This document shows, in pieces, positions 4,208 to 64,000 of a DNA stretch of 64,000 nt. Position 1 is the stretch's first letter. Every line of letters begins with the position of its first letter. Both the position numbers and the translations under genes were made by a program. The stretch comes from Candidatus Omnitrophica bacterium UBA6233 (GTDB lineage: Bacteria; Omnitrophota; Gorgyraeia; Gygaellales; Profunditerraquicolaceae). Below the pieces are notes generated by a model that saw nothing but the letters and a program-made list of their open reading frames with translations, was not told where the DNA came from and searched no databases. Location of the stretch: the NCBI GenBank assembly GCA_002440965.1, contig DJWJ01000016.1, positions 7,409 to 71,408 on the forward strand. The letters are read 5' to 3'.

Positions 4208-4220
4208 TTAATTCCCGCAA

Positions 4221-42884: not shown

Positions 42885-43166
42885 GTGTTTCTTATGGATT
42901 GGGATAAGGCTACGCAGGAAAAGTTCAAGGTTATGGTTGCTAAAATACCTGTTTTCCATCGGCATATTACCGAGGGGGTAGTAACTAAGGGAGCACAGGG
43001 GTATGCTCAGGCAAGAGGCGCTGTAAAGATTGAAGAAGTGGATGTGATAAATGCATTTTTCTCGGATGTCCCTGCCGCCTTTTATAGTATGATGGTTAGG
43101 CTGCTGGAGCAGAACGGTTTTGATTATAAGAAATACGGTTTCCCCAAAAATAGACCCCTTATATGA
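42885..43166 (+). CDS. small protein with PCP_red-like (protochlorophyllide reductase 57-kDa subunit C-terminal-like) domain
   Basis: 'WDKATQEKFKVMVAKIPVFHRHITEGVVTKGAQGYAQARG' resembles the stand-alone PCP_red domain. Low certainty. Confidence 0.3.
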   Translation: MFLMDWDKATQEKFKVMVAKIPVFHRHITEGVVTKGAQGYAQARGAVKIEEVDVINAFFSDVPAAFYSMMVRLLEQNGFDYKKYGFPKNRPLI

Positions 43167-44170: not shown

Positions 44171-44171
44171 A

Positions 44172-44768: not shown

Positions 44769-44879
44769 GAAATCAATGGCCGATTACCAATATCACAATG
44801 TCGAACGAAATCCCAATGATCCAATGTTTCAATTGTGAATTGGGATTTGTAAATTGGATATTTAGCTTAGGGATTAAAT

Positions 44880-47361: not shown

Positions 47362-47368
47362 ATAGTTT

Positions 47369-47500
47369 AATGACAAATGACAAAATCCAAAGCACAAAAT
47401 AAATCTAAAGTTCAAATGTCAAATACTAAAACTAATGTTTTGTTATTTAATTTTTGGAATTTGAATTTATTTTGGATCTTGTGCTTTGTCATTTGACATT
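47369..47500. repeat. intergenic long palindromic repeat, family 'AATGACAAATGACAAAATYCAAAGCACAAAATAAAT', copy A
   Basis: The 5' arm 'AATGACAAATGACAAAATCCAAAGCACAA' is mirrored by 'TTGTGCTTTGTCATTTGACATT'. Lies between the KS-beta stop and the rSAM RBS. Confidence 0.7.
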
Positions 47501-47515
47501 AAAAGAGGAGGAGTT

Positions 47516-48976
47516 ATGAAGATATTATTTGTAATGCCTAAAGTCGGTGCCTGGGCAACCCATGGGATTCACCGTTCGCCGAATCAGTTATACGCGCATT
47601 GGGCTGCTTATGTGCGTGAAAAAGGATATAAGGATGTGGCGGTTATTGACGGTAAAGCTGAGCAGATTCCGATGGATCAGCTTATCGAACAGGTAAAACT
47701 TAAGAACCCCGATGTGGTGGTAATGGGTGAGCAGCTGCATGGTTATGGCGGATACGGAGTTTTACGCCATTTTAAAGACGCGGCCATTGGAATTAAAAAA
47801 GCCCTGCCTAAAACCAAGATAATTCTCGGCGGATTATGGTATTCGGCAATGCCTGTTCCGACTTTAGAAGAAATTCCGGAAGTTGATTTCGTGGTTATGG
47901 GAGAAGAGGAGTCATTTGGAGATTTAATCGAGGCAATTGATAAGAATAAGCCGCTTAAGGATGTTGGCGGAGTAACTTCGCGCATCGATGGTAAGATAGT
48001 CATGGGCCCGCATAAACCATTGATGACGGATTTGGATAAATTACCTTTACCGGCTTATGATTTGTTTCCGATGGATAAGTACTCGGGCCACACTTATTGG
48101 AAACCGTTTGTGGATATGGTTACTTCCCGCGGCTGCCCTTCAGCCTGCACATTTTGTTATGAGTGGGATCAGTTTGATCCGCGCTCGCCTTCGGATTTCT
48201 TAAAATGGCGCGCCAAGAGCCCAGAAAGAGTAATTGAAGAATTGAAACTCCTGCGCGATAAATACGGAGTCAAAGTAGTAGTAATTCAGGATGATAATTT
48301 TATCGTGGATCCTGCGCGCGTCAAGAAATTCTGCGAGTTAAAAAAGAAAGCTAACATTGATACCAAATGGGTTGCTTTGGGCAGGGCTACTGATTGGATC
48401 AATTGCGAATCGATCTTACCTCTGATGAAAGAAACAGGTCTATTCATGGGAGTCTTTGGAATTGAAGTAACTACCCAGTCGGAACTTAAGAAGATCGCTA
48501 AAGGTATAACCATTGACCAGATCCAAAAGACAATCGATATCCTGCGCAAACAGAATATCGCGATTGTCGCTGACATTATGATGGGTTTTGATTATGATAC
48601 CGAAGAAATAATTAAGCAGCGTTTTGAGTTTACCGACGCGGTGGATCCGGATATTTTATGGGTTGGTTACGTGACTCCTGCGCCGAATTCGCCGATGTGG
48701 AAGGTTGCCTTAAAGAAAAACTGGATCGATCCCAAGAAAGTGGATTTCTCGACCTGGGATTTTCTGCACCCGGTAATTCCTACGGATCACTTAACTACTG
48801 AAGACTTAGGCAGGCTTGGTTCATGGTGTATGCGCGAATTTTTCTCCAAACCCGGACGGGTCAACCGGATCATGGAGAGCGATTTTGATCCGCTGGCCAA
48901 GCTTTGTTTCCAGGATGTTATGAATGGCATCAACAAGTGGGAAGCAGCCGCGACCAAGGGCGAAGTTCAGATATAA
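47516..48976 (+). CDS. B12-binding-domain radical SAM enzyme (class B rSAM)
   Basis: N-terminal cobalamin-binding-like domain; 'SRGCPSACTFC' CxxxCxxC motif. RBS AGAGGAGG before the ATG at 47516. Confidence 0.8.
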   Translation: MKILFVMPKVGAWATHGIHRSPNQLYAHWAAYVREKGYKDVAVIDGKAEQIPMDQLIEQVKLKNPDVVVMGEQLHGYGGYGVLRHFKDAAIGIKKALPKTKIILGGLWYSAMPVPTLEEIPEVDFVVMGEEESFGDLIEAIDKNKPLKDVGGVTSRIDGKIVMGPHKPLMTDLDKLPLPAYDLFPMDKYSGHTYWKPFVDMVTSRGCPSACTFCYEWDQFDPRSPSDFLKWRAKSPERVIEELKLLRDKYGVKVVVIQDDNFIVDPARVKKFCELKKKANIDTKWVALGRATDWINCESILPLMKETGLFMGVFGIEVTTQSELKKIAKGITIDQIQKTIDILRKQNIAIVADIMMGFDYDTEEIIKQRFEFTDAVDPDILWVGYVTPAPNSPMWKVALKKNWIDPKKVDFSTWDFLHPVIPTDHLTTEDLGRLGSWCMREFFSKPGRVNRIMESDFDPLAKLCFQDVMNGINKWEAAATKGEVQI

Positions 48977-48990
48977 GCTAAAGGAAGGAT

Positions 48991-49227
48991 ATGGAGATGA
49001 AAGCGAAAGTTAAAGAAGTTTTGGTTAATTTGCTCAAAGTCAAACCTGAAGAATTAAAGGATGGTGTTTCTTTGGAAGAGAGTATAGGCGTGGATTCAAC
49101 TGAAATGGTTGAGTCAGTCATTGCTCTGGAAAAGGCTTTTGGAGTGAAGTTAAGCCCTAAAGAAATTAGCAAGTCTTCCAGCATTGACGATATCGCGAAA
49201 ATTATAAGTAGCAAGATAAGCGTTTAA
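48991..49227 (+). CDS. acyl carrier protein
   Basis: 78 aa; phosphopantetheine-attachment context 'GVDSTEMVESVIALEKAFGV'. Confidence 0.7.
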   Translation: MEMKAKVKEVLVNLLKVKPEELKDGVSLEESIGVDSTEMVESVIALEKAFGVKLSPKEISKSSSIDDIAKIISSKISV

Positions 49228-49328
49228 TGACAAATGTCAAAATTCAAATGTCAAAATTCAAATGTAAAAACCAAGGTATTTAGTTTTGTAATTTGCGCTT
49301 TGACATTTGAATTTTGACATTTGACATT
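49226..49328. repeat. intergenic long palindromic repeat, same family, copy B
   Basis: 'AATGACAAATGTCAAAATTCAAATGTCAAAATTCAAATG' is mirrored by 'CTTTGACATTTGAATTTTGACATTTGACATT'. Lies between ACP and the cyclase gene. Confidence 0.7.
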
Positions 49329-49340
49329 AGCTATTTATTC

Positions 49341-50138
49341 ATGAAGATTATTGATTTAAGTCTTCCAATAGATGACAAGGCGTTTGAGGTGCACAAGGTA
49401 GCCATTGAGCGGGTAACTCATAAGGCGGGGATTAAGAAGTTTAACCGCGTGATTATGGGTAAGACGCTGGCGGGAAGAGTTAAATACCTTTTGGGAAAAC
49501 GCATCCTCAAGAAAGAAGATTTACCTGACGAAGAATTTTTATCACTGGAAGTCGTGCATTCTCCGGTTCACGTCGGCACCCACCTGGATTATTCATTCCA
49601 TTACGGATCAAAATCCGAAAACCGCACCTCTAAAACAGCCGAAGAGATCCCGCTGGAATATTGTTATCAAGACGGAGTAAGGCTCAATCTTACCCATAAA
49701 AAACCCAATGAAAAAATTCTTTCCGCGGATATCGAAGCAGCGCTTAAAAAAATAAATTATAAATTAAAACCTCTGGATATTGTTTTTTTGCATACCGGAG
49801 CGGATAAGTTTTTTGGTTCGCCAAAATATTTCTCGGATTATCCGGGAGTGGATACTTCGGCGATAGATTATCTTTTGGACCAGGGAGTCAAGATTTTTGG
49901 GGTGGATACAATGGGTATTGACCGTCCATACAGGTTTATGCTTAAAGAATTCCTGGAGAGTAAAAATCTTAAGGCTTTATACCCGGCGCATTTTTATGGA
50001 AGAAAAAGAGAATTCATCCATATCGAGAGGCTGGCTAATTTAGAGAAGCTTCCGGCAACTGGGTTTAAGGTTATTTGTTTTCCGGTGAAGATTAAAAATA
50101 CAGGCGCGGCTTGGTCGCGAGTAGTTGCAATATTATGA
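49341..50138 (+). CDS. cyclase-family protein (PF04199-like; kynurenine-formamidase/putative-cyclase fold)
   Basis: 'MKIIDLSLPI' start and 'HSPVHVGTHLDYSFHY' (HxGTHxD) metal-binding motif. Start moved to 49341 because the tabulated ORF start runs into the repeat. Confidence 0.65.
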   Translation: MKIIDLSLPIDDKAFEVHKVAIERVTHKAGIKKFNRVIMGKTLAGRVKYLLGKRILKKEDLPDEEFLSLEVVHSPVHVGTHLDYSFHYGSKSENRTSKTAEEIPLEYCYQDGVRLNLTHKKPNEKILSADIEAALKKINYKLKPLDIVFLHTGADKFFGSPKYFSDYPGVDTSAIDYLLDQGVKIFGVDTMGIDRPYRFMLKEFLESKNLKALYPAHFYGRKREFIHIERLANLEKLPATGFKVICFPVKIKNTGAAWSRVVAIL

Positions 50139-50191
50139 CACCCGGCCTTAAAGGGTAGGCCGGTGTGCGCTTTCTGCGCAAGGAGGATTAA

Positions 50192-50629
50192 ATGGGACAC
50201 ACTTGTAATTCGATAATAATCAAGGCGCCATATGATTTAGTATTTGATATTTCCAATGATATCCCGCGCTGGACCGAATTATTTGGCAGCGAATACAAAA
50301 AAGCTGAGATTACAAAAAAAGAAGAGAACAAGATTACTTTTTGCCTGACTGATGATGAAGATAAGTCTTGGATTTCTTGGAGACTGCTTTATAAAGACAA
50401 ATTCTTTACTTATTCTGAAAGGCAGGAGCCGAAATTTCCGTTTAAATATATGAAAATCGTCTGGCTCTATACCCAAAAGCCGGAAGGAGTGGAATTAACC
50501 TGGATTCAACATTTTGAAATGGATGATAAAGCCAAGTTCAATGATGAGCAGGTCGAGGGCTTCATTAATAAGCATTCCAAAGACAATCTGTTAATTTTTA
50601 AGAATGTAATTGAAAAAGCAGCAGCTTAA
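50192..50629 (+). CDS. SRPBCC (Bet v1/START-like) polyketide cyclase/dehydrase-like protein
   Basis: 'SIIIKAPYDLVFDISNDIPRWTELF' is typical of the Polyketide_cyc2/SRPBCC N-terminus; 145 aa. Confidence 0.55.
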   Translation: MGHTCNSIIIKAPYDLVFDISNDIPRWTELFGSEYKKAEITKKEENKITFCLTDDEDKSWISWRLLYKDKFFTYSERQEPKFPFKYMKIVWLYTQKPEGVELTWIQHFEMDDKAKFNDEQVEGFINKHSKDNLLIFKNVIEKAAA

Positions 50630-50657
50630 AACAATGCTCCGCGCATAGCGCGGAGTT

Positions 50658-50692
50658 AAATAAGCGCCAAGCGCCAGTGGCGGCGCTTATTT
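50658..50692 (+). terminator. stem-loop (AATAAGCGCC...GGCGCTTATTT), preceded by a second hairpin CTCCGCGC-atag-GCGCGGAG
   Basis: 10-bp perfect stem with a T-rich tail. Immediately upstream of RBS AAGGAGG of the SDR gene. May act as an intra-operon attenuator or RNA-stability element. Confidence 0.45.
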
Positions 50693-50705
50693 AAGGAGGT
50701 AGAAA

Positions 50706-51482
50706 ATGAATCAGGACTTAAAAGGTAAGGTAGCGATTGTAACCGGAGCAAGCCGAGGGATTGGCAAGGCTCTTGCCTGCACTGCGGCAAGCTTAGGAGT
50801 AAATTTAACTATTGCTGCCCGCGGAGAAGGCCAATTAAAAGAAGCAGCTGAAGAAATCGCCAAAAAATATAAGGTAGATGTTTTAGCTGTTCCTTGCGAT
50901 GTCACTAAATTAGAGGACCTCGAGAATTTGGTGAATAAAACCAAGGAGAAATTCGGTAAGATCGATATTTTGATCAATAACGCCGGAGTTTCTTCGCAGT
51001 ATCCATTTCAAGATCAGCCGATTGAGGATTTTGAGCGCCTGGCCCATACAAATTATTTGGGTTATGTGCGCCTGATCCGTTTGGTTATCAACGATATGAT
51101 CAAAAATAAAAGCGGCGCGATCATCAATATGGTTTCCGGCTCTACTCTTTGCGATCCGCTACCCAGGAATTTTATCGTTTATAGCTCATTAAAAGTCGGT
51201 TTGCGCGCGTTCTCTAAAGGGTTATTTTGGGAATTGCGCGACCACGGTATCAAAGTTACTTCGATATTGCCCGGGGTTACGGACACGGATCTGACCGGAA
51301 AATTAAGCGAGATTACCGCTGATACTAAAAGATTGATGAGCACTGAGGCAATCGAAGACGCGGTCAGGTTTGCTTTGACTGTGCCGCAGAATGTTTGTCC
51401 CCTAGAGATCGCGGTAATCAATCAGCAAACCCCGTGGACAGCTCCGGTAATACCATTTGCACAGAAGCATCCGGGAAAATAG
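50706..51482 (+). CDS. short-chain dehydrogenase/reductase (FabG/ketoreductase-like)
   Basis: 'GKVAIVTGASRGIGKALA', 'NNAG' and 'YSSLKVGLRAF' (YxxxK). Confidence 0.8.
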   Translation: MNQDLKGKVAIVTGASRGIGKALACTAASLGVNLTIAARGEGQLKEAAEEIAKKYKVDVLAVPCDVTKLEDLENLVNKTKEKFGKIDILINNAGVSSQYPFQDQPIEDFERLAHTNYLGYVRLIRLVINDMIKNKSGAIINMVSGSTLCDPLPRNFIVYSSLKVGLRAFSKGLFWELRDHGIKVTSILPGVTDTDLTGKLSEITADTKRLMSTEAIEDAVRFALTVPQNVCPLEIAVINQQTPWTAPVIPFAQKHPGK

Positions 51483-51546
51483 CTTAACGGCACCCGACGC
51501 TGATCGGAATTGCGTCGGTGTTGTCATGGTAGGCAAGGAGGATTAA

Positions 51547-52155
51547 GTGAAAAAAATATTTTTAGCGGCGGCATTGTTATTAGGGATAACAGGAATTAGT
51601 TTTACGGCAGATGGAAATTTGCTGGTTGATGATTTTGAGATCGCGGTTTCAGCTGGGCCAGACGGCACAGTTGATTTTGGCGCGGGAAACGGCTCAATTA
51701 TAAAAGTTACCGCGGCCGCGGATGTTAAAAATACCGGAAAACAAGGTCTAAAGGTTGATTTTGACGCGGTTACCGGCGGGTATATGTATGTTGCCCGCGG
51801 CGAAGGGCTTGACGCGCATAATACCGGCTGGCTCGTAAATCCGGATAGCATCAAATGGCAGGATTATAAGGCATTTTCTTTTTATATGTATGGCTCAGAT
51901 TCCAAAGGTAAAATAGCTTTTGATCTTAAAGACAGTGGAAATGAAATCTGGCGTTTTATAGTTGAAGATAATTTCAAGGGGTGGAAGCAGATCATCTGTA
52001 ATTTTGATCAATTTACCGTAAGGGGCGATTGGCAGCCGCAAACAGCTGATAATAACGCGGCGCTTAATTTTCCGATCCGTTCATTTCAATTTGAGCCGCT
52101 TCCTCCATTAAAGGGCACGATTTATTTTGATACAATGGAGTTGATCAAGAAATAA
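51547..52155 (+). CDS. secreted hypothetical protein (beta-sandwich / carbohydrate-binding-module-like)
   Basis: Signal peptide 'MKKIFLAAALLLGITGISFTA'. No catalytic motif recognised. Confidence 0.4.
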   Translation: MKKIFLAAALLLGITGISFTADGNLLVDDFEIAVSAGPDGTVDFGAGNGSIIKVTAAADVKNTGKQGLKVDFDAVTGGYMYVARGEGLDAHNTGWLVNPDSIKWQDYKAFSFYMYGSDSKGKIAFDLKDSGNEIWRFIVEDNFKGWKQIICNFDQFTVRGDWQPQTADNNAALNFPIRSFQFEPLPPLKGTIYFDTMELIKK

Positions 52156-52547
52156 TGAATAAGCGGGATTTAAAGAACTTAAAAAAGCGTTACCTCATCT
52201 GGTTTTATAAGACTTCCAAAGAGGCGCTTGATAAAGTCGAGCGGAAATTCAGCCAGGTTGATATCGACCGTTTTATTCTTAAGGAATTGCAAGCTTCGGA
52301 TAAGGATAAAGCGGTTGAACTTTTGATCGCTCAGTTTGAAGCGTATATTCAAAAGAAGGAAGCAGATGGCCTTGACTTAAAGTTCGAGAATAAGAAGTTA
52401 AAGCCGGATTATTTATTCCTTTCCTGGAAATTAGAAGCAATTGAAAAAGCGATTGTCAAAGAGCTGGGTAAAAAGGGGCTCGAAGAGATAAAGCTTCTCT
52501 ATGAAGTTGAGATGATTGAGCGAATATTGAGAAGTACAGAACATTAA
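52155..52547 (+). CDS. hypothetical protein
   Basis: 130-aa charged, helical ORF; no recognisable motif. Confidence 0.3.
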   Translation: MNKRDLKNLKKRYLIWFYKTSKEALDKVERKFSQVDIDRFILKELQASDKDKAVELLIAQFEAYIQKKEADGLDLKFENKKLKPDYLFLSWKLEAIEKAIVKELGKKGLEEIKLLYEVEMIERILRSTEH

Positions 52548-52548
52548 G

Positions 52549-52690
52549 TAATGACAAATGACAAAATTCAAAGCACAAAATAAATTCAAAATCAAAATTA
52601 CCAATGACAAAACCTTGGTTTTGACATTGGGTATTTGTCATTTAAATTTATTTTGAATTTTGAGCTTTGGTATTTGTCATTTTGAATAAT
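52549..52690. repeat. intergenic long palindromic repeat, same family, copy C
   Basis: 'AATGACAAATGACAAAATTCAAAGCACAAAATAAATTC' is mirrored by 'GAGCTTTGGTATTTGTCATTTTGAAT'. Shares its first ~36 nt with copy A at 47369. Confidence 0.7.
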
Positions 52691-52760
52691 CGTTCAGCAA
52701 CCCCCGGGCTTTAGCCTGAGGAGTATTCATTTTTTTGGCTTTGGGATTTGACATTAAATT

Positions 52761-53669
52761 ATGATTATAGACAGTCATAGTCACTGGTTACCTGAAGGAA
52801 TAATCAATAGCGCCCATTTCTATCATAAAGGTTGGGGAGATATTGAGGCTCAGCTTAAGATGATGGATGCGGCGGGGATTGCTAAGGCGGTTTTAACATA
52901 CCCAACTTCTGACGCGCATTTAAAAATGGGGAGTATCTCTGAAGTCGTGCGTATATTTAATGACCACGTCGCTAAAATCATCAAAAAATATCCGGATAGA
53001 TTTATCGGAGCGGCAATTCTTCCCATAGACCACCAGCCGGATATGCTTAAAGAAATAAAGCGGACTACAGAAGAATTGGGATTTAAAGCTATTTCTTTAG
53101 CAACTAGTTATGGCGGAGTTTATTTGGATGATGCTAGATTTATGGATGTATATAAGTTAGCCCAAAGCAAAAATTTACCGATCTTTGTGCATTCGCAGAT
53201 TGTTAAGCCGATAGGAACTGAGCGCGTAGAGGATCCGCTACTTACTCCGGTAATTGAGTATGTGTTTGATACGACGATGTGTATTGGCAAGCTTTTGATG
53301 TCGGATATTCTGCGCGATTACCAGACTAAATTTATTTTTGGTTATTTTGGCGGAGTTACGCCGTTTTTGGCAAATAGATTTGACGCGACTTATCAAATGC
53401 TGCGAGGGATGAACTTTGTTAAGGATTTGCAAGCTAAGCCTACAGAATTATTAAAGAATATTTATGTGGATACTAGCGGAGATACGACTAAAGCTAATTT
53501 TCAGGCAGCCTTAGAGTTGTTCGGGCCGCAGCATATTTTATGGGGGAGCGACTGGCCAGCCAAGCGCGACATCGCTCCAGGCATCAATGCAATCAAAGAA
53601 TTGAATATATCCGACGCGGATAAGAATAGTATATTAGGCGGTAATTTAGCTCAGCTTTTTGCTCTTTAG
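52761..53669 (+). CDS. amidohydrolase-2 family (PF04909, TIM-barrel metal-dependent hydrolase/decarboxylase)
   Basis: 'MIIDSHSHW' and 'ILWGSDWP' are hallmarks of the ACMSD/amidohydrolase_2 family. Confidence 0.7.
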   Translation: MIIDSHSHWLPEGIINSAHFYHKGWGDIEAQLKMMDAAGIAKAVLTYPTSDAHLKMGSISEVVRIFNDHVAKIIKKYPDRFIGAAILPIDHQPDMLKEIKRTTEELGFKAISLATSYGGVYLDDARFMDVYKLAQSKNLPIFVHSQIVKPIGTERVEDPLLTPVIEYVFDTTMCIGKLLMSDILRDYQTKFIFGYFGGVTPFLANRFDATYQMLRGMNFVKDLQAKPTELLKNIYVDTSGDTTKANFQAALELFGPQHILWGSDWPAKRDIAPGINAIKELNISDADKNSILGGNLAQLFAL

Positions 53670-53679
53670 CAATTTGTGT

Positions 53680-53825
53680 CTGGCTTGTCTTGTTTAGCCT
53701 CGGGGTCCTGCCGCGGAAGTTTCCCCATTCCTGCGGTCAGGTTTGTCCTCGGAACGGGGAAGCCCCTCTTCCGCGTCACCCCTCCGGCATTACTCTAGAC
53801 ATAAGTGTAAACAAGCCAACCCAGC
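53680..53825 (+). ncRNA. candidate signal recognition particle RNA (ffs-like extended hairpin)
   Basis: GC-rich ~145-nt imperfect hairpin: 5' GGCTTGTCTTGTTTAGCC...3' GTAAACAAGCC, with CCGCGGAAG pairing CTTCCGCG. The apical region contains 'GGTCAGGT...GGAA...GGGGAAGC', resembling the SRP RNA helix-8 consensus 'GGUCAGGUCCGGAAGGAAGCAGC'. Confidence 0.35.
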
Positions 53826-53869
53826 CACAAATGTGGACTCACAGCACCTTTTGGCAAAATAGCTCTTAA

Positions 53870-54190
53870 ATGGTTTAAATGAATCTGGCAAGTTTATCCG
53901 CGAATTGAGATTTTAGCCAAAGCACGCTTGAGGATTTTCGGGAATTCCGAGGCCAAGCTGAAAGCTTGGCAATCTCGGAACGGCTGTCCGATGTTTGTAG
54001 TATAGAGACAGGCTGAGAGCGCCGAGTGAAAGCACGAGGCGCGAGTTCGGCAGCCGCCGAAAATACGAAAGACCTTTGGCGGCACGCTCCTAATTCTGTT
54101 AGCGGGCAAAATCGATTGAGCGGGAAACTTGGCAGATTCATTAAAACTTACTCGACAGGACCCGCGTAAGGTCTAGAGTTAACAAAGTGG
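53870..54190 (+). ncRNA. GC-rich structured non-coding region upstream of crcB (unassigned; possible riboswitch/leader or small RNA)
   Basis: No ORF with coding character. Several local hairpins (GGCCAAGC-tgaa-AGCTTGGC; GCCGCC...GGCGGC; CGCC-gagtgaaagcacga-GGCG). GC content is clearly above the surrounding genes. Confidence 0.25.
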
Positions 54191-54206
54191 TAGATTTATC
54201 AATATT

Positions 54207-54581
54207 ATGATAAAATTCTTAAATCTGGTTATCGGCGGGGCAGCGGGGACGATTGCCCGTTATTTGCTGGCAGGGTTTGTGTATAGGGTGGCAGGGACAA
54301 GTTTTCCTTACGGAACGCTTATCGTAAATGCCTCCGGATGTTTTATCTTAGGGATCTTGGCTTCTTTAGCGGATAAGAAATTTGTGCTTGGGCCGGATGC
54401 CAGAATATTATTGATGATCGGTTTTTGCGGCGCGTTTACTACCTTTTCAACTCTGATATTTGAATCCGATAATCTGGTTAGAAATGGGCAGGCAATAAAA
54501 GCATTCAGTAATATATTGATTAGTGTAATTTTAGGCTTTATTTTATATAGAGTCGGTTCTTTATTAGGCGAGATTATTTAA
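54207..54581 (+). CDS. crcB: fluoride ion channel CrcB/Fluc
   Basis: 124 aa, four TM helices; 'GGAAGTIARY' and 'GFCGAFTTFSTL' motifs. Confidence 0.85.
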   Translation: MIKFLNLVIGGAAGTIARYLLAGFVYRVAGTSFPYGTLIVNASGCFILGILASLADKKFVLGPDARILLMIGFCGAFTTFSTLIFESDNLVRNGQAIKAFSNILISVILGFILYRVGSLLGEII

Positions 54582-54594
54582 ACCGGGAGATAAA

Positions 54595-54927
54595 ATGAAA
54601 ATTCCTGCGGACGGTAAGCTCTTAAGAATTTTTATCGGCGAAGCGGACAAATGGAATGGCAAACCGCTTTATGAAGAGATCGTGCTTCTGGCCAAAAAAA
54701 CAGGGATGGCTGGAGCAACTGCCATAAAAGGATTTATGGGTTTTGGATGCAAGAGCCATATGCATACTGCAAATCTGCTCAGATTATCCGAAGACTTGCC
54801 GATTGTCATTGAAATCGTCGATAGCGAGGATAAGATCAACACGTTTATCCCTCAACTTGATAGTATGGTTAAGGAAGGTTTAATTACTCTGGAAAAAGCT
54901 AACGTAATCATGTACCGCGCGCAATAA
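54595..54927 (+). CDS. DUF190-family protein (PII-like; commonly paired with crcB)
   Basis: 'LLRIFIGEADKWNGKPLYEEIV...GATAIKGFMGFG'. Confidence 0.7.
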   Translation: MKIPADGKLLRIFIGEADKWNGKPLYEEIVLLAKKTGMAGATAIKGFMGFGCKSHMHTANLLRLSEDLPIVIEIVDSEDKINTFIPQLDSMVKEGLITLEKANVIMYRAQ

Positions 54928-54943
54928 AAAGGAGAAGACTAAC

Positions 54944-55693
54944 ATGCAAATGGTAAAAGATGTGCATCTGACGGGAAAAGATCTGACACAAATGGTTCAA
55001 TTACGCCAGCAGGATGTGGGCAAATACGCGATTGTTCCGGGCCCCAAGGATAGGCTGGAAGTTTTAATGAAGAAAATCGAGAATCCGGTCAAGAATTTTA
55101 CTTTTATGGAATATTCCATGTTCACCGGGACTTATCAAGGGATCAAGATTACCATGATGAACGGCGGAAGATTTTCTACGGATACCTCGATTACCTCGGA
55201 AGTAATGTGCAATGCCAGAATTGATAATATTATCCGCGCGGGCTCTGCCGGTTCTTTGGATGAAAATATAAAAGTAGGAGATTTATTCGTGGTTGATGAA
55301 GTTATCCGCGGAGACGGGGTTACGCCTTATTATGTGGATAAGGACTTTAAAACAGTTGCCGATAAAAAAATTGCCGATACGCTTTATGAGGCGGGTAAGG
55401 CTATGGGTATAAATATCCATCGTGGAAAGGCCTGGAGCACGGATGCGCTTTTACGCGAAACCAGAGAAATCGTCGAAGCTAAGCGTAAAGAGGGGGCAAG
55501 AGCCGTAGATATGGTCTCTTCAACGCTTTTGACCATTGCCCAGACTTATGGCGTTAAAGCAGGTTCGATCCTGGCCGTAAGCGATAATGTGATTACCGGC
55601 GAAATGGGTTTTATGAATCCATTGTATTATATGGCTGAGGCGAATATTTTAAAAATTGCCCTTGAGGCAGTGGTAAAATTAGAGGGAAAATGA
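54944..55693 (+). CDS. PNP/UDP-family nucleoside phosphorylase (MTA/5'-deoxyadenosine/purine nucleoside phosphorylase-like)
   Basis: 'IDNIIRAGSAGSL' and 'VDMVSSTL' are typical of the PNP_UDP_1 fold. Confidence 0.65.
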   Translation: MQMVKDVHLTGKDLTQMVQLRQQDVGKYAIVPGPKDRLEVLMKKIENPVKNFTFMEYSMFTGTYQGIKITMMNGGRFSTDTSITSEVMCNARIDNIIRAGSAGSLDENIKVGDLFVVDEVIRGDGVTPYYVDKDFKTVADKKIADTLYEAGKAMGINIHRGKAWSTDALLRETREIVEAKRKEGARAVDMVSSTLLTIAQTYGVKAGSILAVSDNVITGEMGFMNPLYYMAEANILKIALEAVVKLEGK

Positions 55694-56658
55694 AATTTTC
55701 TCCGCTTTTCTGGCCGATCCAGTTTAAAAACGGGATAATTTATATCCTTGATGAAACTCTCCTGCCGCATAAGCTTACCTATATAAAGGCAAAGAACTAC
55801 CAGGAGGCCTGTCGCGCGATAAAAGAAATGAAAACCCGGGCTGTGGGCCAGGTCATTCTGGTAATGTATATTTTTCTGCAATTACTCGAGCAAGGGAAAA
55901 AGAAAGACCTGGTTAAAGTTGCTCAAGCTATCAACTCTACCCGTCCGACTTTATCATTTAAGTTTTTAACCGATATGGTTTTGGGTTGGGCTAAATCCGG
56001 CGCTCCTTTAGATAAATGCATTACGGGATTTTTAGAAGGTTTAAAATACAGCCGGATCAAACAAGCTGAAGAAGCCAGCAAATTAATTAAAAGCGGTGAT
56101 TGCATATTAACTCATTGCAATATCAGTGGTCTCCTGCCTTTAATCGGAGAAATTTGTCAAAAGCAGGGTAAAAAGATAAGTTTTTTCGCGACTGAAACCC
56201 GTCCATATATGCAAGGCTCGCGTTTAACTGCCTGGGAGTTAAAACAAGCCGGATTTGACGTAACCATAATCACCGATAATATGGTTGCCGCGGTTATGTC
56301 TTTGGGTAAGGTAAATAAAGTTATTGTCGGCGCGGATCATTTGGCGCAAAACGGAGATATCGCCAATAAAATCGGAACTTATGGAATCGCGGTCTTAGCT
56401 AGACATTTCAATCTGCCTTTTTATGTTTTATGCCCGCCGGCTTCCGGATTAAAGAGCGGCAAAGATATCAAAATCGAGATCAGACCGGATATCGAGATGC
56501 TTGAGTATCAGGGTTTGCGCTTGGCGCCTATTGGCGCGAAAGGTTATTATCCGGCATTCGATGTTACTCCCAATAAATTAATTACCAAACACATCCATTT
56601 AAATGTAGGGACGGTTCTCAATTCAAGGCAGAAGTGTCCCCGGAGGGGACAGTTTTAG
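55690..56658 (+). CDS. eIF-2B alpha/beta/delta family isomerase (MtnA-like 5-(methylthio/deoxy)ribose-1-phosphate isomerase)
   Basis: 'GADHLAQNGDIANKIGTYGIAVLARHFNLPFYVLCP'. Confidence 0.75.
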   Translation: MKFSPLFWPIQFKNGIIYILDETLLPHKLTYIKAKNYQEACRAIKEMKTRAVGQVILVMYIFLQLLEQGKKKDLVKVAQAINSTRPTLSFKFLTDMVLGWAKSGAPLDKCITGFLEGLKYSRIKQAEEASKLIKSGDCILTHCNISGLLPLIGEICQKQGKKISFFATETRPYMQGSRLTAWELKQAGFDVTIITDNMVAAVMSLGKVNKVIVGADHLAQNGDIANKIGTYGIAVLARHFNLPFYVLCPPASGLKSGKDIKIEIRPDIEMLEYQGLRLAPIGAKGYYPAFDVTPNKLITKHIHLNVGTVLNSRQKCPRRGQF

Positions 56659-56693
56659 GTTGGTTTGAGAACCGTCCCTAATAGAGGAGAGAG

Positions 56694-57695
56694 ATGATTT
56701 TTAGCAGAGAGAGGGCGTTAAAAAAAGAAATAATTCAAGTTGGCAAACATCTTTATCGGAATAGGCTGGCTGTGGCTAAATCCGGGAATTTAAGTGCGCG
56801 CCTGGATGCTGAAAACATACTGATTACTGCAACCGGAACATCGCTAGGGGATTTAAAATATAAGGATATTGTAAAAGTAAATTTAAGCTCTGAGAAAGTT
56901 TGCGGTGAGGCCAAGCCCAGTTCAGAGTTACCTTTACACGCTCTTGTTTATAAGAATTTCGATTCTAAAGTTGTGATTCATGCCCACCCTCCTTTAATCA
57001 ACGGTTATTTTGCGGTTACCTCAGATTTAAAGGCCTTAACCTTCGAGACTAAATTTTATCTGGGGAATATTCCGGTTATTGAGCAAGATACTCCTACTGT
57101 AACTAAACCCGGAGCAGTCATAAGCGCGTTGAAATCCAATAGTTTAGTTATACTGAAGAATCACGGGATAGTGGCGATAGCTGATAAATTCGGCGACGCG
57201 CTTAATTTAACTGAAGCCCTGGAAGAGGCAGTGCGTAGCGCTGCTTTGGCCAGAATATTCCAGAAAGATATTCTTGATGATTTGGACAAGGTTTTAAAAG
57301 AAGATTTGGCCAAGGATGTCGCATATACAATGTTTTCTCCAGAGCATATCCAGGCGATTGTAGATTTAGTGAATAAAGACGAATTCATTGCTCAAAAAGG
57401 GAAAGAACAGGATTTAACGGTAAAGCTGGCTATAAAATTGGACGGAAGCGATAAAGCCTACAAATTTAATTTCGAAAAAGGAAAAATCGTAAAATTGGAT
57501 TTTGATAGCGAGGCGCCATTTGTAATTTCTGCCCCGGCCAATGTCTGGGAGCAGGTGTTTTTGGGTAAGCTCGATTCGTTTGTGGCGGTTACCCAGGGGA
57601 AAATGAAATTGCAGGGACAATTGGGCCAGCTTTCCAAGTGGTATGTGCCCTTTACTCGGCTTTTTGGGATATTTAAGGAAGTAAAGATAAAATGA
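56694..57695 (+). CDS. class II aldolase/adducin-family protein (MtnB/Ald2/FucA-like) with C-terminal extension
   Basis: 'SGNLSARLD', 'VVIHAHPPLINGYFAV' and 'LKNHGIVAI' metal-binding motifs; extra ~120-aa C-terminal region. Confidence 0.7.
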   Translation: MIFSRERALKKEIIQVGKHLYRNRLAVAKSGNLSARLDAENILITATGTSLGDLKYKDIVKVNLSSEKVCGEAKPSSELPLHALVYKNFDSKVVIHAHPPLINGYFAVTSDLKALTFETKFYLGNIPVIEQDTPTVTKPGAVISALKSNSLVILKNHGIVAIADKFGDALNLTEALEEAVRSAALARIFQKDILDDLDKVLKEDLAKDVAYTMFSPEHIQAIVDLVNKDEFIAQKGKEQDLTVKLAIKLDGSDKAYKFNFEKGKIVKLDFDSEAPFVISAPANVWEQVFLGKLDSFVAVTQGKMKLQGQLGQLSKWYVPFTRLFGIFKEVKIK

Positions 57696-59179
57696 TTAAA
57701 AATTATCCGCTCTATATAGGCGGAAAATTCATCGAGACCAAAGACAGGCTGGGAGTGCTTAATCCTTCGACGGGAAAAGTAATTGCCGAGGCTTCGCTTG
57801 CTTCGTTAAAAGAAGTGGAATTGGCTTTAGTAAGCGCAAGAGCAAGTTTTGACCAGGGAGACTGGCCACATTTAACCCTAGCCCAGCGTAAGAATTTTAT
57901 CGTTAAAATTGCGCAAGGAATCCTAGATAATGCCGCGGAACTGGCAGAGTTAGAAAGCGCAAATACCGGGAAACCCACTAAGGAATCCACTTTTATGGAT
58001 ATTCCTTCGGCGGCAAGAACTTTTTCCTATGCCGCCAATAATTTCGAAAAATTCCTGAAAGCAGAAGATTTAAGAATCGGAGAAGAAGCGGAAGCAGTTT
58101 TAAGGCGCGAGCCAGTGGGAGTTGCGGTATTAATCGTTCCCTGGAATTATCCGCTTTTAATCGCCTGCTGGAAATTAGCCTCAGCTTTGTCTGCCGGAAA
58201 CACGCTGATATTGAAGCCATCCAGCCTTACTCCTTTAACCGCTCTAAAGCTGGCCCGGATTATACATGATGCCGGATTACCAGCAGGAGTCGTAAATGTT
58301 ATCAATGGCAGCGGCAGCAAGATTGGAGAGGCGCTTTGTTCGGATAAACGGGTGGATATGATTTCTTTTACTGGGAGCAATGAAGTGGGTAAGTCGATTT
58401 TGGAGTATTCATCTAAAAACGCAAAGAAATCGATTATGGAATTAGGTGGAAAATCCGCCAGCTTGATTTTTGGGGATGTGGATTTGGATACGGCGGTGAA
58501 TAGTTCGCTTTGCTCCATATTTTTGAATCAAGGGCAGATGTGCACAGCTATGTCGCGGATATTTGTGCAGGATAATTTATATGATAAATTCGCGGATAGT
58601 TTTGTGGAAAAGGCCAAAAGGCTTAAGCTTGGGACTCCGGACGACCCCGAAGTGCAAGTCGGGCCGTTAATCAGCGAAAACCAGCGCAAAAAAGTTATCG
58701 TCTATATTGAGAAAGCTAAAAGAGAGGGTGCTAAGGTATTATGTGGCGGGAAGATCCCGTCTAGTCCGGAATTAAAAAACGGTTTTTTCTTTGAGCCTAC
58801 GGTTTTAGCCGGGGTTAACCGAAACGCGCATATATTTAAGGAAGAAGTATTCGGCCCGGTAGTCATCATCGGAAAATTTTCCAGCGCAGAGGAAGCTTTA
58901 GATTTGGCTAATGCCAGCGATTTTGGTTTGGCAGCTTGTATTTGGACCAAGGATCTGGAGTTAGCTAAAGAATTTTCCCGGAAACTTAACGCCGGGACTG
59001 TTTGGATTAATACTTACGGCATGTTTTATAATGAACTTCCCTATGGCGGATTTAAGAGGAGCGGTTTTGGCAAGGAATTAGGCAAGGAGGGAATTCTCGA
59101 GTATACCCGGCTTAAGAATATAATCATTGATCAGTCGCCTGATTCGAAACCTTTGGTCAACTACTGGTACGGGTTCTAA
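57692..59179 (+). CDS. NAD(P)-dependent aldehyde dehydrogenase
   Basis: 'VPWNYPLL', 'ELGGKSA' and the catalytic Cys context 'NQGQMCTAMSRIFV'; 495 aa. Confidence 0.85.
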   Translation: MIKNYPLYIGGKFIETKDRLGVLNPSTGKVIAEASLASLKEVELALVSARASFDQGDWPHLTLAQRKNFIVKIAQGILDNAAELAELESANTGKPTKESTFMDIPSAARTFSYAANNFEKFLKAEDLRIGEEAEAVLRREPVGVAVLIVPWNYPLLIACWKLASALSAGNTLILKPSSLTPLTALKLARIIHDAGLPAGVVNVINGSGSKIGEALCSDKRVDMISFTGSNEVGKSILEYSSKNAKKSIMELGGKSASLIFGDVDLDTAVNSSLCSIFLNQGQMCTAMSRIFVQDNLYDKFADSFVEKAKRLKLGTPDDPEVQVGPLISENQRKKVIVYIEKAKREGAKVLCGGKIPSSPELKNGFFFEPTVLAGVNRNAHIFKEEVFGPVVIIGKFSSAEEALDLANASDFGLAACIWTKDLELAKEFSRKLNAGTVWINTYGMFYNELPYGGFKRSGFGKELGKEGILEYTRLKNIIIDQSPDSKPLVNYWYGF

Positions 59180-59182: not shown

Positions 59183-59899
59183 ATGCTGAAATACATCTTA
59201 TCTATATGGTATTGGATTGCCAGCACAATTATTACAATGGTTTTATTTTTTGTAGTGCTTTTTATCGTCGTCTTTACTTTTCCTTTTGATAAGAAGAATA
59301 AACTTGCGCATGCGCAATGTTTCTGGTGGTCGGATTGGGTGATCCGAATGAATCCTTACTGGAAATTGCGGGTCGAGGGCTTGGAAAATATTGATTACTC
59401 CAAGACCTATGTAATTATCGCTAACCATCAGAGTCTGGCCGATATAGCTGTGCTTTACCAAACCCGCATGCAATTTAAATGGGTCGCCAAGCAAAGCCTT
59501 TTTAAGATTCCTTTTATCGGATGGTGTCTTTCTTTAATCAAGCATATAAAGCTGGAAAGGGGGGATTTCTCCAGCATTAAAAAACTATATCGTGAGGCAG
59601 CGGAATGGCTCAGGAAAGATATGTCGGTATTATTTTTTCCCGAAGGTACCCGCAGCGATACCGACACGATGAATGCTTTTCAAAACGGCGCCTTTAAATT
59701 AGCCCTCAAAGAAAAGAAGCCGATTCTTCCTGTTCGCATCAGAGGCACGCGTGATGCTATCCCTAAAGGGAGTTGGGTGTTTGAGGCTAAGGTTGATGCG
59801 GTAGTTACAGTGTTGCCGGTAATAGAAACAAGCGAATTAGCCCCAGGCGATTTTGCTTTACTTAGGGATGAAGTTTTTGCCAAGATTTCCGGAAATTAA
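59183..59899 (+). CDS. plsC: 1-acyl-sn-glycerol-3-phosphate acyltransferase
   Basis: 'ANHQSLADI' (HX4D-type) and 'FPEGTRS' motifs; N-terminal TM. Confidence 0.75.
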   Translation: MLKYILSIWYWIASTIITMVLFFVVLFIVVFTFPFDKKNKLAHAQCFWWSDWVIRMNPYWKLRVEGLENIDYSKTYVIIANHQSLADIAVLYQTRMQFKWVAKQSLFKIPFIGWCLSLIKHIKLERGDFSSIKKLYREAAEWLRKDMSVLFFPEGTRSDTDTMNAFQNGAFKLALKEKKPILPVRIRGTRDAIPKGSWVFEAKVDAVVTVLPVIETSELAPGDFALLRDEVFAKISGN

Positions 59900-63079: not shown

Positions 63080-64000
63080 ATGAACATAATCCAAATACTC
63101 GACGATAGGGCAAAAAATAACCCGGATAAACCAGCGGTTATATTCAGGGAGCAAGTAATTTCATTTTCTAAATTAGCGGATTTTTCTTTGCGTTTTGCCA
63201 ACACTCTTAAAAAACTAGGTGTGAATAAGGGCGATAAGGTGGCAGTATACTTGCCGAGTTGGCCGGAATATATTTTTAGTTATTTGGCTATTTGGCGCAT
63301 AGGCGCAACAGCCGTGCCTTTGGATTTCATGCTTACTGAAGATGAGTTGGCCTCATGCATAGCGCATTCCGAGGCCAAGATTTTGATTGCTAAGCCTAAA
63401 GCCAATTTTTCTCTCGTGTCGCTTAAGAATAGATGTTCTGATTTAAAACAGATAATCACTTGTCAGGATAAAACAGAAGGGTTTTTATTCTTTAACGATT
63501 GTGTAGAGAAATCCGTTTCAACCGCGATAAAAGTGGATATACAGGATAAAGACCATGCCATTATCTTCTATACCTCCGGAACAACCGGTAAGCCCAAAGG
63601 AGTATTAATAAATTACTTGCAATTAAGCGCTCCTCCTAAGTCCATGGAGTTTTTCGTAAATTCAGACCTAGGCGATCGCGACACGACTTTATGCGCTTTG
63701 CCTTTTTCGCATTTGGGAGGCCTGATTTATATTCAAAACACTATTGTTTTTGGTTTAAAGCTGGTTCTGATGGAAAGATTTATCCCGTTAGAGTTTTTGA
63801 AGGACATTCAGAATTTTAAAGTAAATTTCTTCTGGCTGGTTCCTTCTATGTATTACGCTCTTTTACAGTTGAAAGAATTTGAAACCTTCGACTTGTCGAG
63901 TTTACGTTGGATTGTAACTTTCGGCGCTTCCAGCTCACCGGATGCTTTGCGTAGATTCCATCAGTTTTGCCCCAAGGCGCACCTATTAAATGGCTGGGGC
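63080..64000 (+). CDS. AMP-dependent synthetase/ligase (acyl-CoA synthetase family), 3'-partial
   Basis: AMP-binding motif 'IFYTSGTTGKPKGV' and 'GWG'. ORF runs to the window edge. Confidence 0.7.
   Translation, partial: MNIIQILDDRAKNNPDKPAVIFREQVISFSKLADFSLRFANTLKKLGVNKGDKVAVYLPSWPEYIFSYLAIWRIGATAVPLDFMLTEDELASCIAHSEAKILIAKPKANFSLVSLKNRCSDLKQIITCQDKTEGFLFFNDCVEKSVSTAIKVDIQDKDHAIIFYTSGTTGKPKGVLINYLQLSAPPKSMEFFVNSDLGDRDTTLCALPFSHLGGLIYIQNTIVFGLKLVLMERFIPLEFLKDIQNFKVNFFWLVPSMYYALLQLKEFETFDLSSLRWIVTFGASSSPDALRRFHQFCPKAHLLNGWG

Follow-up and report, generated by a model that had tools for sequence, protein, structure and literature searches.

The window analyzed here is a stretch of 64,000 nucleotides on contig DJWJ01000016.1 of Candidatus Omnitrophica bacterium UBA6233 (assembly GCA_002440965.1, positions 7,409 to 71,408 of the forward strand). 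At its positions 54944-59179, exactly where an earlier note on this DNA had placed them, lie four plus-strand open reading frames (ORFs) that encode a purine nucleoside phosphorylase (PNP)-like enzyme, an MtnA-like sugar-1-phosphate isomerase, a class II aldolase fused to an SCP2 (sterol-carrier-protein-2-like) domain, and an aldehyde dehydrogenase (ALDH). This block forms a fixed unit within a cluster, at least 16 kb in size, that is built around a ketosynthase and chain-length factor (KS/CLF), an acyl carrier protein (ACP), and a class-B (B12-binding) radical S-adenosylmethionine (SAM) enzyme, and it is not a free-standing salvage operon. We interpret the four genes as encoding a route of the dihydroxyacetone phosphate (DHAP) shunt type that would act on a 5'-deoxy purine nucleoside and serve specifically the class-B radical SAM enzyme co-inherited with them, and put the chance that this is right at about one half. 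The block comprises the following features:

54944-55693, plus strand: PNP-like nucleoside phosphorylase of a divergent hexameric DeoD-type subfamily, 249 aa (Pfam PNP_UDP_1, E 3e-32)
55690-56658, plus strand: MtnA-like (eIF-2B family) sugar-1-phosphate isomerase, 322 aa (Pfam IF-2B, E 7e-53)
56606-56680, no strand assigned: inverted repeat over the isomerase stop codon with 36-nt arms and a 3-nt loop, 81% complementary, also terminator-like
56694-57695, plus strand: aldolase-SCP2 fusion ORF, 333 aa
56694-57263, plus strand: class II metal-dependent aldolase domain (Pfam Aldolase_II, E 4e-35)
57306-57695, plus strand: SCP2 domain, C-terminal to the aldolase (Pfam SCP2, E 1e-5, above the gathering score)
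57692-59179, plus strand: non-acylating NAD(P)+ aldehyde dehydrogenase, 495 aa (Pfam Aldedh, E 7e-166)

Families were assigned by scanning the window's ORFs with Pfam and NCBIfam profiles, using equivalog cut-offs as thresholds. The four families named in the earlier note (PNP/UDP phosphorylase, MtnA-like isomerase, class II aldolase, and ALDH) were all confirmed by Pfam, and the additional C-terminal domain that it had seen on the aldolase is real and has the SCP2 fold according to Pfam, AlphaFold2, and Foldseek. Its description of the genes as slightly overlapping is correct for two junctions, PNP/isomerase and aldolase/ALDH, which overlap by 4 nt each, but not for isomerase and aldolase, which are separated by a gap of 35 nt that is sited in the hairpin at 56606-56680.

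The block is a fixed part of a ketosynthase cluster in Omnitrophota

SCP2-fused aldolases, for which we searched with a profile built from eight aldolase sequences, are encoded in 328 species-level genomes, and we determined the gene content of the 80 best-matching species-level loci by mapping the window's genes onto them with tblastn. All 80 belong to Omnitrophota, with aldolase identities of 66-87%, and the top 120 matches listed by a word-index search were all Omnitrophota proteins, too, at identities of at least 73%. Nearly every Omnitrophota locus shares the order of an array composed of a KS, an inactive KS partner, the class-B radical SAM enzyme, ACP, a PF04199 cyclase, SRPBCC, SDR, (a CBM11-like protein), a 130-aa protein, Amidohydro_2, PNP, isomerase, aldolase-SCP2, and ALDH. 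In loci with enough flank, to which these counts are restricted, the isomerase gene lies beside the aldolase-SCP2 gene in 71 of 72 cases, ALDH in 68 of 68, and PNP in 53 of 62, and Amidohydro_2 is present in 48/50, SDR in 45/45, and the class-B radical SAM enzyme in 34/38. This gene order is conserved far beyond chance, and median identities to the window across species amount to 89% for the class-B radical SAM enzyme and 83% for the phosphorylase.

More distant SCP2-fused aldolases, drawn from a search of representative proteins, show 32-42% identity and form about 25 clusters at 50% identity. On a 3.4-Mb contig (L010), the genes have been reordered to acyl-AMP ligase, PNP, isomerase, aldolase-SCP2, ALDH, class-B radical SAM enzyme, ApbA, KS, KS, ACP, cyclase, and SRPBCC, and another locus (L094) consists of the class-B radical SAM enzyme, PNP, isomerase, aldolase-SCP2, and ALDH with no KS genes; in both, the radical SAM enzyme adjoins the module, with 52% and 36% identity, respectively, over its full length. 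A metagenome-assembled genome of Syntrophaceae (L012) has only an LpxL-type acyltransferase, PNP, isomerase, and aldolase-SCP2, the fusion gene of locus L095 overlaps an RlmN-like radical SAM gene, and locus L096 carries PNP remnants and the aldolase-SCP2 fusion followed by an acyl-AMP ligase. Genes for such ligases immediately follow ALDH in L006, immediately precede PNP in L010, and overlap the aldolase-SCP2 gene in L096. Because the class-B radical SAM enzyme has been kept with the module despite rearrangement (in Omnitrophota, L010, and L094), we define the unit as this enzyme plus PNP, isomerase, aldolase-SCP2, and ALDH, often accompanied by an acyl-AMP ligase, and the radical SAM gene is the one most tightly co-inherited with the module.

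These findings bear on the source of the nucleoside, which the earlier note had sought in several radical SAM enzymes of the window, including a KamA-like one. The link to the class-B enzyme was strengthened by its co-conservation with the block, but a general salvage function for several radical SAM enzymes did not hold up, because the block is fixed in a cluster of at least 16 kb and travels specifically with the class-B gene. KamA-type aminomutases regenerate SAM, and the KamA-like gene of the window (21965-23152) is located ca. 32 kb from the block, which together make it an unlikely source of the by-product.

Predicted activities of the four enzymes

The closest solved relatives of the phosphorylase are uridine phosphorylase of S. 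pyogenes (3qpb) and DeoD of Bacillus (1xe3/2ac7), and its top NCBIfam matches, uridine phosphorylase with 112 bits and DeoD with 97 bits, both stay under their cut-offs (97 and 90 bits for the DeoD models versus cut-offs of 230 and 232). The model for 5'-methylthioadenosine phosphorylase (MtnP; TIGR01694) reaches 18.6 bits versus a cut-off of 274.85, MtnN models score at most 54 bits (the cut-off of the best match is 169; TIGR01704 scores 44.3 versus 73.8), and the HpnG model TIGR03468 scores 49 bits versus 187.1. Judged by its sequence, the phosphorylase is therefore a member of the hexameric DeoD/uridine phosphorylase branch and not an MtnP. Alignments to 3qpb, 1xe3, and 2ac7 indicate that it has kept Arg37 (PNP Arg24), Arg98 (PNP Arg87), and the catalytic Asp214 in an "SDN" motif (PNP Asp204), which are the only equivalents left of the DeoD site set comprising Arg24, Arg87, Arg43, His4, Glu181, and Asp204. 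In E. coli PNP, His4 contacts the 5'-hydroxyl, Glu181 the ribose, and Arg43 the phosphate, and Asp204 protonates the purine. The phosphorylase of the window has Met17 in place of the 5'-hydroxyl-binding His4, Glu56 in place of Arg43, Val191 in place of the ribose-binding Glu181 ("EME" to "DMV"), and a new Arg76, all of them invariant in 63 orthologues. An invariant methionine at the site of His4 would suit a substrate without 5'-hydroxyl.

The isomerase is closest to the solved structures of T. maritima 1t9k and B. subtilis MtnA (2yvk) and scores slightly under the cut-offs of the MtnA equivalog models (236 bits for NF004326 with a cut-off of 271, and 224 bits for the other), but it passes that of the eIF-2B_rel subfamily model TIGR00524 (194.9 versus 185.85 bits). 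Its catalytic Cys143 (THCN) and Asp216 (GAD) are invariant in 63 orthologues, as would be expected of an MtnA/DrdI-type isomerase. The ribose-1,5-bisphosphate isomerase model TIGR00511 gives 111.7 bits versus a cut-off of 314.1, so that the MtnA-like and not ribose-1,5-bisphosphate isomerase-like character proposed in the earlier note is borne out by the model scores. We rejected a role as ribose-1,5-bisphosphate isomerase in a pentose bisphosphate pathway on this score and since no AMP phosphorylase, RuBisCO, or ribose-1-phosphate kinase is present in the window or related loci. The isomerase of the window is longer than its orthologues, which stop 6-18 codons earlier, and it is the hairpin over its stop codon that lengthens the ORF; at the boundary of the isomerase and aldolase genes, this hairpin may function as an internal attenuator or a site of RNA processing. 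The C-terminal tail of the isomerase that the hairpin gives rise to (…NVGTVLNSRQKCPRRGQF) is not seen in orthologues. Outside Omnitrophota, a small ORF of 141-172 aa that the window lacks lies between the isomerase and aldolase-SCP2 genes (L010, 9583-10008; L012, 9361-9879; L094, 9568-10008); it matches IF-2B in L010, does so only weakly in L012, and gave no match in L094.

In the aldolase domain, the metal-binding or catalytic residues Glu78, His96, His98, and His157 are invariant in 85 sequences. The AlphaFold2 model of the aldolase (predicted local distance difference test, pLDDT, 91.8) is matched about equally by fuculose-phosphate aldolase FucA (4c24), YgbL (6vop), and 5-deoxyribulose-1-phosphate aldolase DrdA (6btg/6btd). 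The best NCBIfam matches of the domain are aldolase models, none of which reaches its equivalog cut-off. A fuculose-phosphate aldolase within a fucose operon was rejected based on the scores of FucA models (35-89 bits versus cut-offs of 250-400) and the lack of FucI, FucK, and FucP nearby.

The last 130 residues of the fusion protein are predicted to adopt an SCP2 fold (pLDDT of 93.9 for a model of the domain alone), which suggests a lipid-binding domain, and are connected to the aldolase domain by a linker modeled with low confidence (residues 190-215). All top Foldseek matches of this domain are SCP2 folds, with Thermus SCP2 (2cx7; TM-score 0.82, root-mean-square deviation 1.9 A) ranking best ahead of UbiJ-SCP2 and the C-terminal domains of alkylsulfatases. 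The fusion has been kept across the aldolase family down to 32% identity, and Pfam SCP2 (PF02036) matches 16 of 17 diverse members. Possible roles of the SCP2 domain are to keep hold of the aldehyde or pass it on, or to bind an acyl ligand.

The nearest named families of the aldehyde dehydrogenase are BADH, aminobutyraldehyde dehydrogenase, and ALDH1/2, none of them above the equivalog cut-off, and a search of the PDB yielded generic BADH and ALDH1/2 relatives with no substrate-specific match. Asn152, Glu250, and Cys284 are invariant in 71 orthologues.

A DHAP-shunt-type route as the probable chemistry of the block

A trio of kinase or phosphorylase, isomerase, and class II aldolase has been described for the use of 5'-deoxyadenosine and 5'-methylthioadenosine (PMC6079011, PMC10986504). 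For the block of the window, we propose that the DeoD-like phosphorylase would take off adenine to leave a 5-deoxy-pentose-1-phosphate, which the MtnA-like isomerase would convert to the ketose-1-phosphate and the metal-dependent aldolase would split into DHAP and a two-carbon aldehyde; the latter would be oxidized to the acid by ALDH and might then be activated by the nearby acyl-AMP ligase. The net result would probably be that a nucleoside by-product of radical SAM chemistry is broken down to adenine, a C3 sugar phosphate, and a C2 acid. The substrate is most likely 5'-deoxyadenosine, with 5'-methylthioadenosine also possible, and its source is most likely the co-inherited class-B radical SAM enzyme. 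Flux in this direction would clear an inhibitory by-product and recover carbon for a single, very highly conserved biosynthetic pathway.

Several observations are consistent with this proposal. The enzyme families and their order fit a series of phosphorolysis, aldose-ketose isomerization, retro-aldol cleavage, and aldehyde oxidation, the catalytic residues are intact and invariant in isomerase, aldolase, and ALDH, and the phosphorylase keeps the purine-protonating aspartate. The class-B radical SAM enzyme, PNP, isomerase, aldolase-SCP2, and ALDH occur together in three deep lineages (Omnitrophota, L010, and L094), and the overlap of one aldolase-SCP2 homologue with an RlmN-like radical SAM gene (L095) is a further association of this kind. 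Genes of RuBisCO-like proteins, AMP phosphorylase, or fucose metabolism were not detected in scans of the window; the earlier note had named in advance a ribose-1,5-bisphosphate isomerase accompanied by RuBisCO-like and AMP phosphorylase genes, or a fucose operon, as findings that would speak against a shunt, and neither was encountered.

The best indirect evidence for a 5-deoxy-pentulose-1-phosphate intermediate may come from a pair of genes for a Zn-dependent dehydrogenase and an LsrF-type thiolase that lies within the module, between aldolase and ALDH or just past ALDH, in 8 of the 80 species (L083, at 11010-12953, L093, at 2527-4355, L088, L072, L068, L087, L069, and L062). On NF006081, the thiolase obtains 362 bits and thereby exceeds the equivalog cut-off of 297. 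LsrF converts 3-hydroxy-2,4-pentanedione-5-phosphate and CoA to DHAP and acetyl-CoA, and oxidation of 5-deoxyribulose-1-phosphate at C4 would, by this chemistry, yield exactly the LsrF substrate. If the pair is a parallel outlet of the same intermediate, that intermediate would therefore be a methyl-ended (5-deoxy) pentulose-1-phosphate. Our literature search found no publication linking LsrF with 5-deoxyribose.

The earlier note had equated the block with the established DHAP shunt. The type of chemistry is still the best reading, but this is not the canonical shunt: the phosphorylase is not MtnP and has an altered active site, and no equivalog cut-off for MtnA, MtnB, FucA, or another aldolase is reached. 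Neither MtnP nor MtnN combined with MtnK/DrdK was found for nucleoside cleavage, and the cluster has no kinase gene, though the phosphorylase of the window may be a functional equivalent for this step.

A number of points weigh against the proposed route. No component scores at the equivalog cut-off for MtnP, MtnA, Ald2/FucA, or any ALDH. The phosphate-binding Arg43 and ribose-binding Glu181 are missing from the phosphorylase, so that phosphorolysis of a normal ribosyl group is not assured, and the shunt model does not explain the loss of these two canonical PNP residues. Nine of 62 species loci have no PNP in the cluster; 7 of 80, all from one subclade, have a gene resembling class IV aminotransferases and aminodeoxychorismate lyases at its position (e.g., L083, 8043-8894; L086, 8245-9051), and L053 has neither of the two there. 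The aldolase has Phe117-Glu118 at the position of the catalytic tyrosine of FucA, and its SCP2 domain is likewise left unexplained by the shunt model, as a domain for hydrophobic ligands has no obvious role in handling acetaldehyde or methylthioacetaldehyde. Finally, a disposal route hard-wired to one biosynthetic cluster, with ca. 66-87% identity throughout the phylum, would be unusual for salvage genes.

If the SCP2 domain holds a lipid tail, the module could instead process a covalently adenosylated hydrophobic pathway intermediate as known from HpnH/HpnG (hopanoids) or MqnE/MqnB (futalosine), which we consider possible but doubtful. Here, an acyl or polyketide chain would receive the 5'-deoxyadenosyl radical from a radical SAM enzyme and then lose adenine through the PNP-like enzyme, and isomerase and aldolase would release C1-C3 as DHAP, so that C4-C5 would stay behind as -CH2-CHO for oxidation by ALDH to -CH2-COOH in what would be, on balance, a radical "carboxymethyl graft". 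Such a substrate would agree with the family-wide fusion of SCP2 to the aldolase down to distant homologues, with the hydrophobic Met at the 5' site and Val at the position of the ribose-binding Glu in the phosphorylase, and with the tight and specific co-inheritance with one family of class-B radical SAM enzymes and KS/CLF/ACP genes. It would also agree with the adjacent acyl-AMP ligase of long-chain type and with operonic acyltransferases in two unrelated lineages (PlsC-type in the window and LpxL-type before PNP in L012). HpnG shows that a PNP homologue can act on an adenosylated lipid (PMC13459092), and the phosphorylase of the window matches HpnG weakly while HpnJ is the second-best model of its class-B radical SAM enzyme. 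However, the HpnG score is far below the cut-off, and the cluster has no adenosylating radical SAM enzyme of the HpnH or MqnE type, as the only radical SAM genes nearby are of the B12 and RlmN-like types. No class-B radical SAM enzyme is known to adenosylate. The pair of LsrF-type thiolase and dehydrogenase is easier to reconcile with a C5 sugar phosphate ending in a methyl group than with one carrying a lipid, and in L012, no radical SAM or KS gene lies within 10 kb of PNP, isomerase, and aldolase-SCP2. It seems fairly unlikely to us that the module is not salvage but the back end of an undescribed "adenosyl-graft" chemistry, a radical route shared across Omnitrophota by which a lipid would be elongated or branched by a C2 unit; if SCP2 did mark a lipid-bearing substrate, this chemistry would be new.

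The remaining alternatives concern the fate of the products or the identity of the substrate. With the chemistry of the DHAP-shunt-type route unchanged, the module might serve less for detoxification than to supply a building block in the form of a carboxylic acid (acetate, methylthioacetate, or another C2-X unit) that the acyl-AMP ligase loads as starter of the KS/CLF-ACP system. The consistent coupling of ALDH to the aldolase, the acyl-AMP ligase beside the module in three lineages (L006, L010, and L096), and the need of KS/CLF and ACP for a primer speak for this idea; we nevertheless find it improbable since an acetyl starter needs no special source and KS/CLF pairs can prime by decarboxylation of malonyl-ACP (10.64898/2026.05.19.726425), the ligase resembles long- and medium-chain and not acetate ligases, and L094 combines the module and the class-B radical SAM enzyme with no KS or ACP genes nearby. 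Three further readings, namely ribose catabolism of the ordinary kind, a role in organofluorine metabolism, and an "aldolase" with another activity, are all unlikely. Ribose catabolism would lead from ribose-1-phosphate via ribulose-1-phosphate to DHAP and glycolaldehyde and on to glycolate, similar to the closing part of the non-carboxylating pentose bisphosphate pathway of haloarchaea, and could draw on the kinship of the phosphorylase with uridine and purine nucleoside phosphorylases and a match of the haloarchaeal ribulose-1-phosphate aldolase model to the aldolase. That match of 76 bits compares with a cut-off of 300, though, the isomerase is MtnA-like, ribose-1-phosphate kinase and ribulose-1,5-bisphosphate phosphatase are not present, the 5'-hydroxyl-binding His has become an invariant Met, and the genomic context is biosynthetic, all of which leaves this pathway very unlikely. 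Equally small is the chance that the aldolase-fold enzyme is an MtnB-type dehydratase, decarboxylase, or epimerase and the block a variant of anaerobic methionine salvage or another sugar-phosphate pathway. Enzymes of the class II aldolase fold have common metal ligands, the catalytic Tyr of FucA is not conserved, and the models of MtnB (TIGR03328) and OtnC decarboxylase match with 63.6 and 90 bits, respectively, but the cut-offs are 137.05 and 250 bits, the best matches are aldolase models, the cluster lacks MtnC, MtnD, MtnW, and MtnX or any other downstream methionine-salvage genes, and the 4-nt overlap of the ALDH gene with the aldolase gene argues for an aldehyde product.

Organofluorine metabolism, in which fluoroacetate would be made or degraded via 5'-fluoro-5'-deoxyadenosine by the same four enzyme types, came into consideration through the crcB and DUF190 genes located immediately upstream on the same strand, and since a series of PNP, MtnA-like isomerase, class II aldolase, and ALDH is also the fluoroacetate route of S. 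cattleya (mentioned in PMC6079011). The fluoride genes are present at this junction in 18 of the 80 species loci and missing from 62 as well as from L010, L012, and L094, which makes them a lineage-specific insertion at an insertion hot-spot junction and not a part of the module. Rfam at gathering thresholds found two tRNAs only and no fluoride riboswitch in the whole window, a permissive scan of 53600-55000 returned only noise and again no such riboswitch, and no SAM_HAT/fluorinase domain, and hence no fluorinase upstream of the block, was found in the window ORFs scanned. We therefore rejected this reading as barely credible and largely refuted by the distribution of the fluoride genes across loci.

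Should the DHAP-shunt-type route be correct, the cluster would represent a case in which this kind of pathway has been permanently built into one biosynthetic pathway dependent on a class-B radical SAM enzyme, with a new enzyme make-up of DeoD-derived phosphorylase, SCP2-fused aldolase, coupled ALDH, and, in some species, an LsrF-type thiolase branch, and would widen the range of solutions to the 5'-deoxyadenosine problem in anaerobes. The fused aldolase marks a cluster of at least 16 kb with KS/CLF, ACP, and class-B radical SAM genes whose core enzymes reach up to ca. 89% median protein identity among the 80 loci, and its product is probably central to the biology of the uncultured Omnitrophota. 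No publication in which MtnA-like isomerase, class II aldolase, and ketosynthase occur together was found in our literature search.

Surrounding cluster and other elements of the window

The block is flanked by the following genes:

44880-46142, plus strand: KS1, FabF-like ketosynthase with the Cys-His-His triad
46135-47361, plus strand: KS2, inactive partner resembling a chain-length factor, with Arg, Asp, and Asn at the triad positions
47486-48976, plus strand: class-B (B12-binding) radical SAM enzyme (Pfam B12-binding and Radical_SAM; CxxxCxxC motif)
48991-49227, plus strand: ACP
49314-50138, plus strand: PF04199 cyclase
50192-50629, plus strand: SRPBCC
50706-51482, plus strand: SDR
51547-52155, plus strand: CBM11-like protein
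52155-52547, plus strand: 130-aa hypothetical protein
52761-53669, plus strand: Amidohydro_2
54207-54927, plus strand: CrcB fluoride exporter and DUF190 (Pfam/NCBIfam families), directly upstream of PNP
59183-59899, plus strand: PlsC-type acyltransferase (Pfam Acyltransferase, TIGR00530), starting 4 nt past the ALDH stop
63080-64000, plus strand: 5' part of an acyl-AMP/CoA ligase that runs past the window end, positioned from the identical contig L001 (16387-17895, AMP-binding domains)

It is the replacement of the Cys-His-His triad by Arg, Asp, and Asn that makes KS2 resemble a chain-length factor. The wider conserved cluster (42290-53669) additionally includes PadR, an ApbA-like reductase, and a TIGR04076-domain protein ahead of the KS genes and resembles type II polyketide synthase systems and the anammox ladderane Cluster I. 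Among NCBIfam models, the class-B radical SAM enzyme comes closest to BchE with 203 bits and HpnJ with 154, scores that lie far under the respective cut-offs, and a sequence search of the PDB gave only distant matches (AprD4, TokK, CysS) without functional clue. Locus L083 encodes a second paralogue of this enzyme. The PlsC-type acyltransferase follows ALDH in 13 of the 80 species loci, and the acyl-AMP ligase scores 431 bits on an NCBIfam subfamily of long-chain-fatty-acid-CoA ligases with a cut-off of 476.

An intergenic repeat of up to 133 nt occurs at three sites of the cluster, between KS2 and the class-B radical SAM gene (47368-47500), ACP and cyclase (49213-49336), and the 130-aa protein and Amidohydro_2 (52549-52681). 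The first and last of these are full 133-nt copies that match each other in direct and inverted orientation, and the ACP/cyclase copy is shorter, with internal inverted arms of 50 nt. The 133-nt repeat is AT-rich with "AATGACAAATGACAAAAT" motifs and resembles REP-type intergenic hairpins. Between the stop codon of Amidohydro_2 (53669) and the start of crcB (54207) lies a GC-rich non-coding element of ca. 270 nt (53878-54150) that is found with 68-73% identity at the same junction of other Omnitrophota (L017, L057, L025, and L080), where its orientation with respect to the operon is reversed. A terminal stem and 81 pairs are predicted for it by RNAalifold, with compensatory double changes in 20 of the pairs, and a comparison to Rfam 15 gave no match at E values up to 10; the element is a candidate structured RNA or small mobile element, and an 88-aa minus-strand ORF across it is probably spurious.

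Elsewhere in the window, a 44-nt element is present in two copies with 91% identity near gene boundaries (10673-10716 and 28082-28125) and has a GC-rich palindromic core flanked by "AAAAGTCAA" repeats. Two tandem ATP-grasp genes resembling D-Ala-D-Ala ligases are followed by the KamA-like radical SAM aminomutase and an EF-G-like GTPase (19977-23152), and these genes may form a set for beta-amino-acid ligation that is unrelated to the block.

Comparison to known systems

With the DHAP shunt or Drd pathway (MtnP or MtnN plus MtnK/DrdK; MtnA/DrdI; Ald2/DrdA), the block would share the course from a 5'-deoxy-nucleoside via pentose-1-phosphate and pentulose-1-phosphate to DHAP and an aldehyde, an MtnA-like isomerase, an aldolase of class II whose metal ligands are intact and whose predicted fold is as near to DrdA as to FucA, and the link to a by-product of radical SAM enzymes. 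It differs in its DeoD-like phosphorylase with altered site in place of MtnP, in the SCP2 domain of its aldolase (DrdA and FucA have ca. 210-220 aa and no SCP2), and in the dedicated, always-present ALDH gene that overlaps the aldolase gene. Furthermore, it is no stand-alone trio but embedded in a cluster of class-B radical SAM enzyme and KS/CLF-ACP, and some species add the LsrF-type thiolase and dehydrogenase. This thiolase, in 8 species, would give DHAP and a C2 unit from a C5 phosphate as in the LsrF/LsrG branch of autoinducer-2 processing, though in a context without LsrK, LsrG, or LuxS and from a substrate that, as proposed, would require oxidation of 5-deoxyribulose-1-phosphate. The fluoroacetate pathway of S. 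cattleya (FlA, FlB, isomerase, aldolase, and fluoroacetaldehyde dehydrogenase) matches the block in the four downstream enzyme types and their order, up to a terminal ALDH, but the block of the window has no fluorinase and its neighboring fluoride exporter is a lineage-specific insertion.

The HpnH/HpnG (adenosylhopane) and MqnE/MqnB (futalosine) systems are similar in that an enzyme of the PNP superfamily is part of a biosynthetic cluster with radical SAM enzymes, including a B12-dependent one like HpnJ/BchE. Unlike the cluster of the window, where HpnH- or MqnE-type enzymes are missing and the HpnG model scores far under its cut-off, these systems keep the ribose carbons in the product and have no isomerase, aldolase, or ALDH. 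The putative ladderane "Cluster I" of anammox bacteria resembles the Omnitrophota cluster by its FabF-like KS with a triad-less, CLF-like partner (FabF2/FabFmut, 10.64898/2026.05.19.726425), a dedicated ACP, radical SAM or B12 enzymes, and its occurrence in bacteria of the PVC group. In contrast to Cluster I, for which neither PMC2649909 nor 10.64898/2026.05.19.726425 mentions PNP, isomerase, aldolase, or ALDH genes, the Omnitrophota cluster has the four-gene block as well as SRPBCC and PF04199 cyclase genes, and no FabZ.

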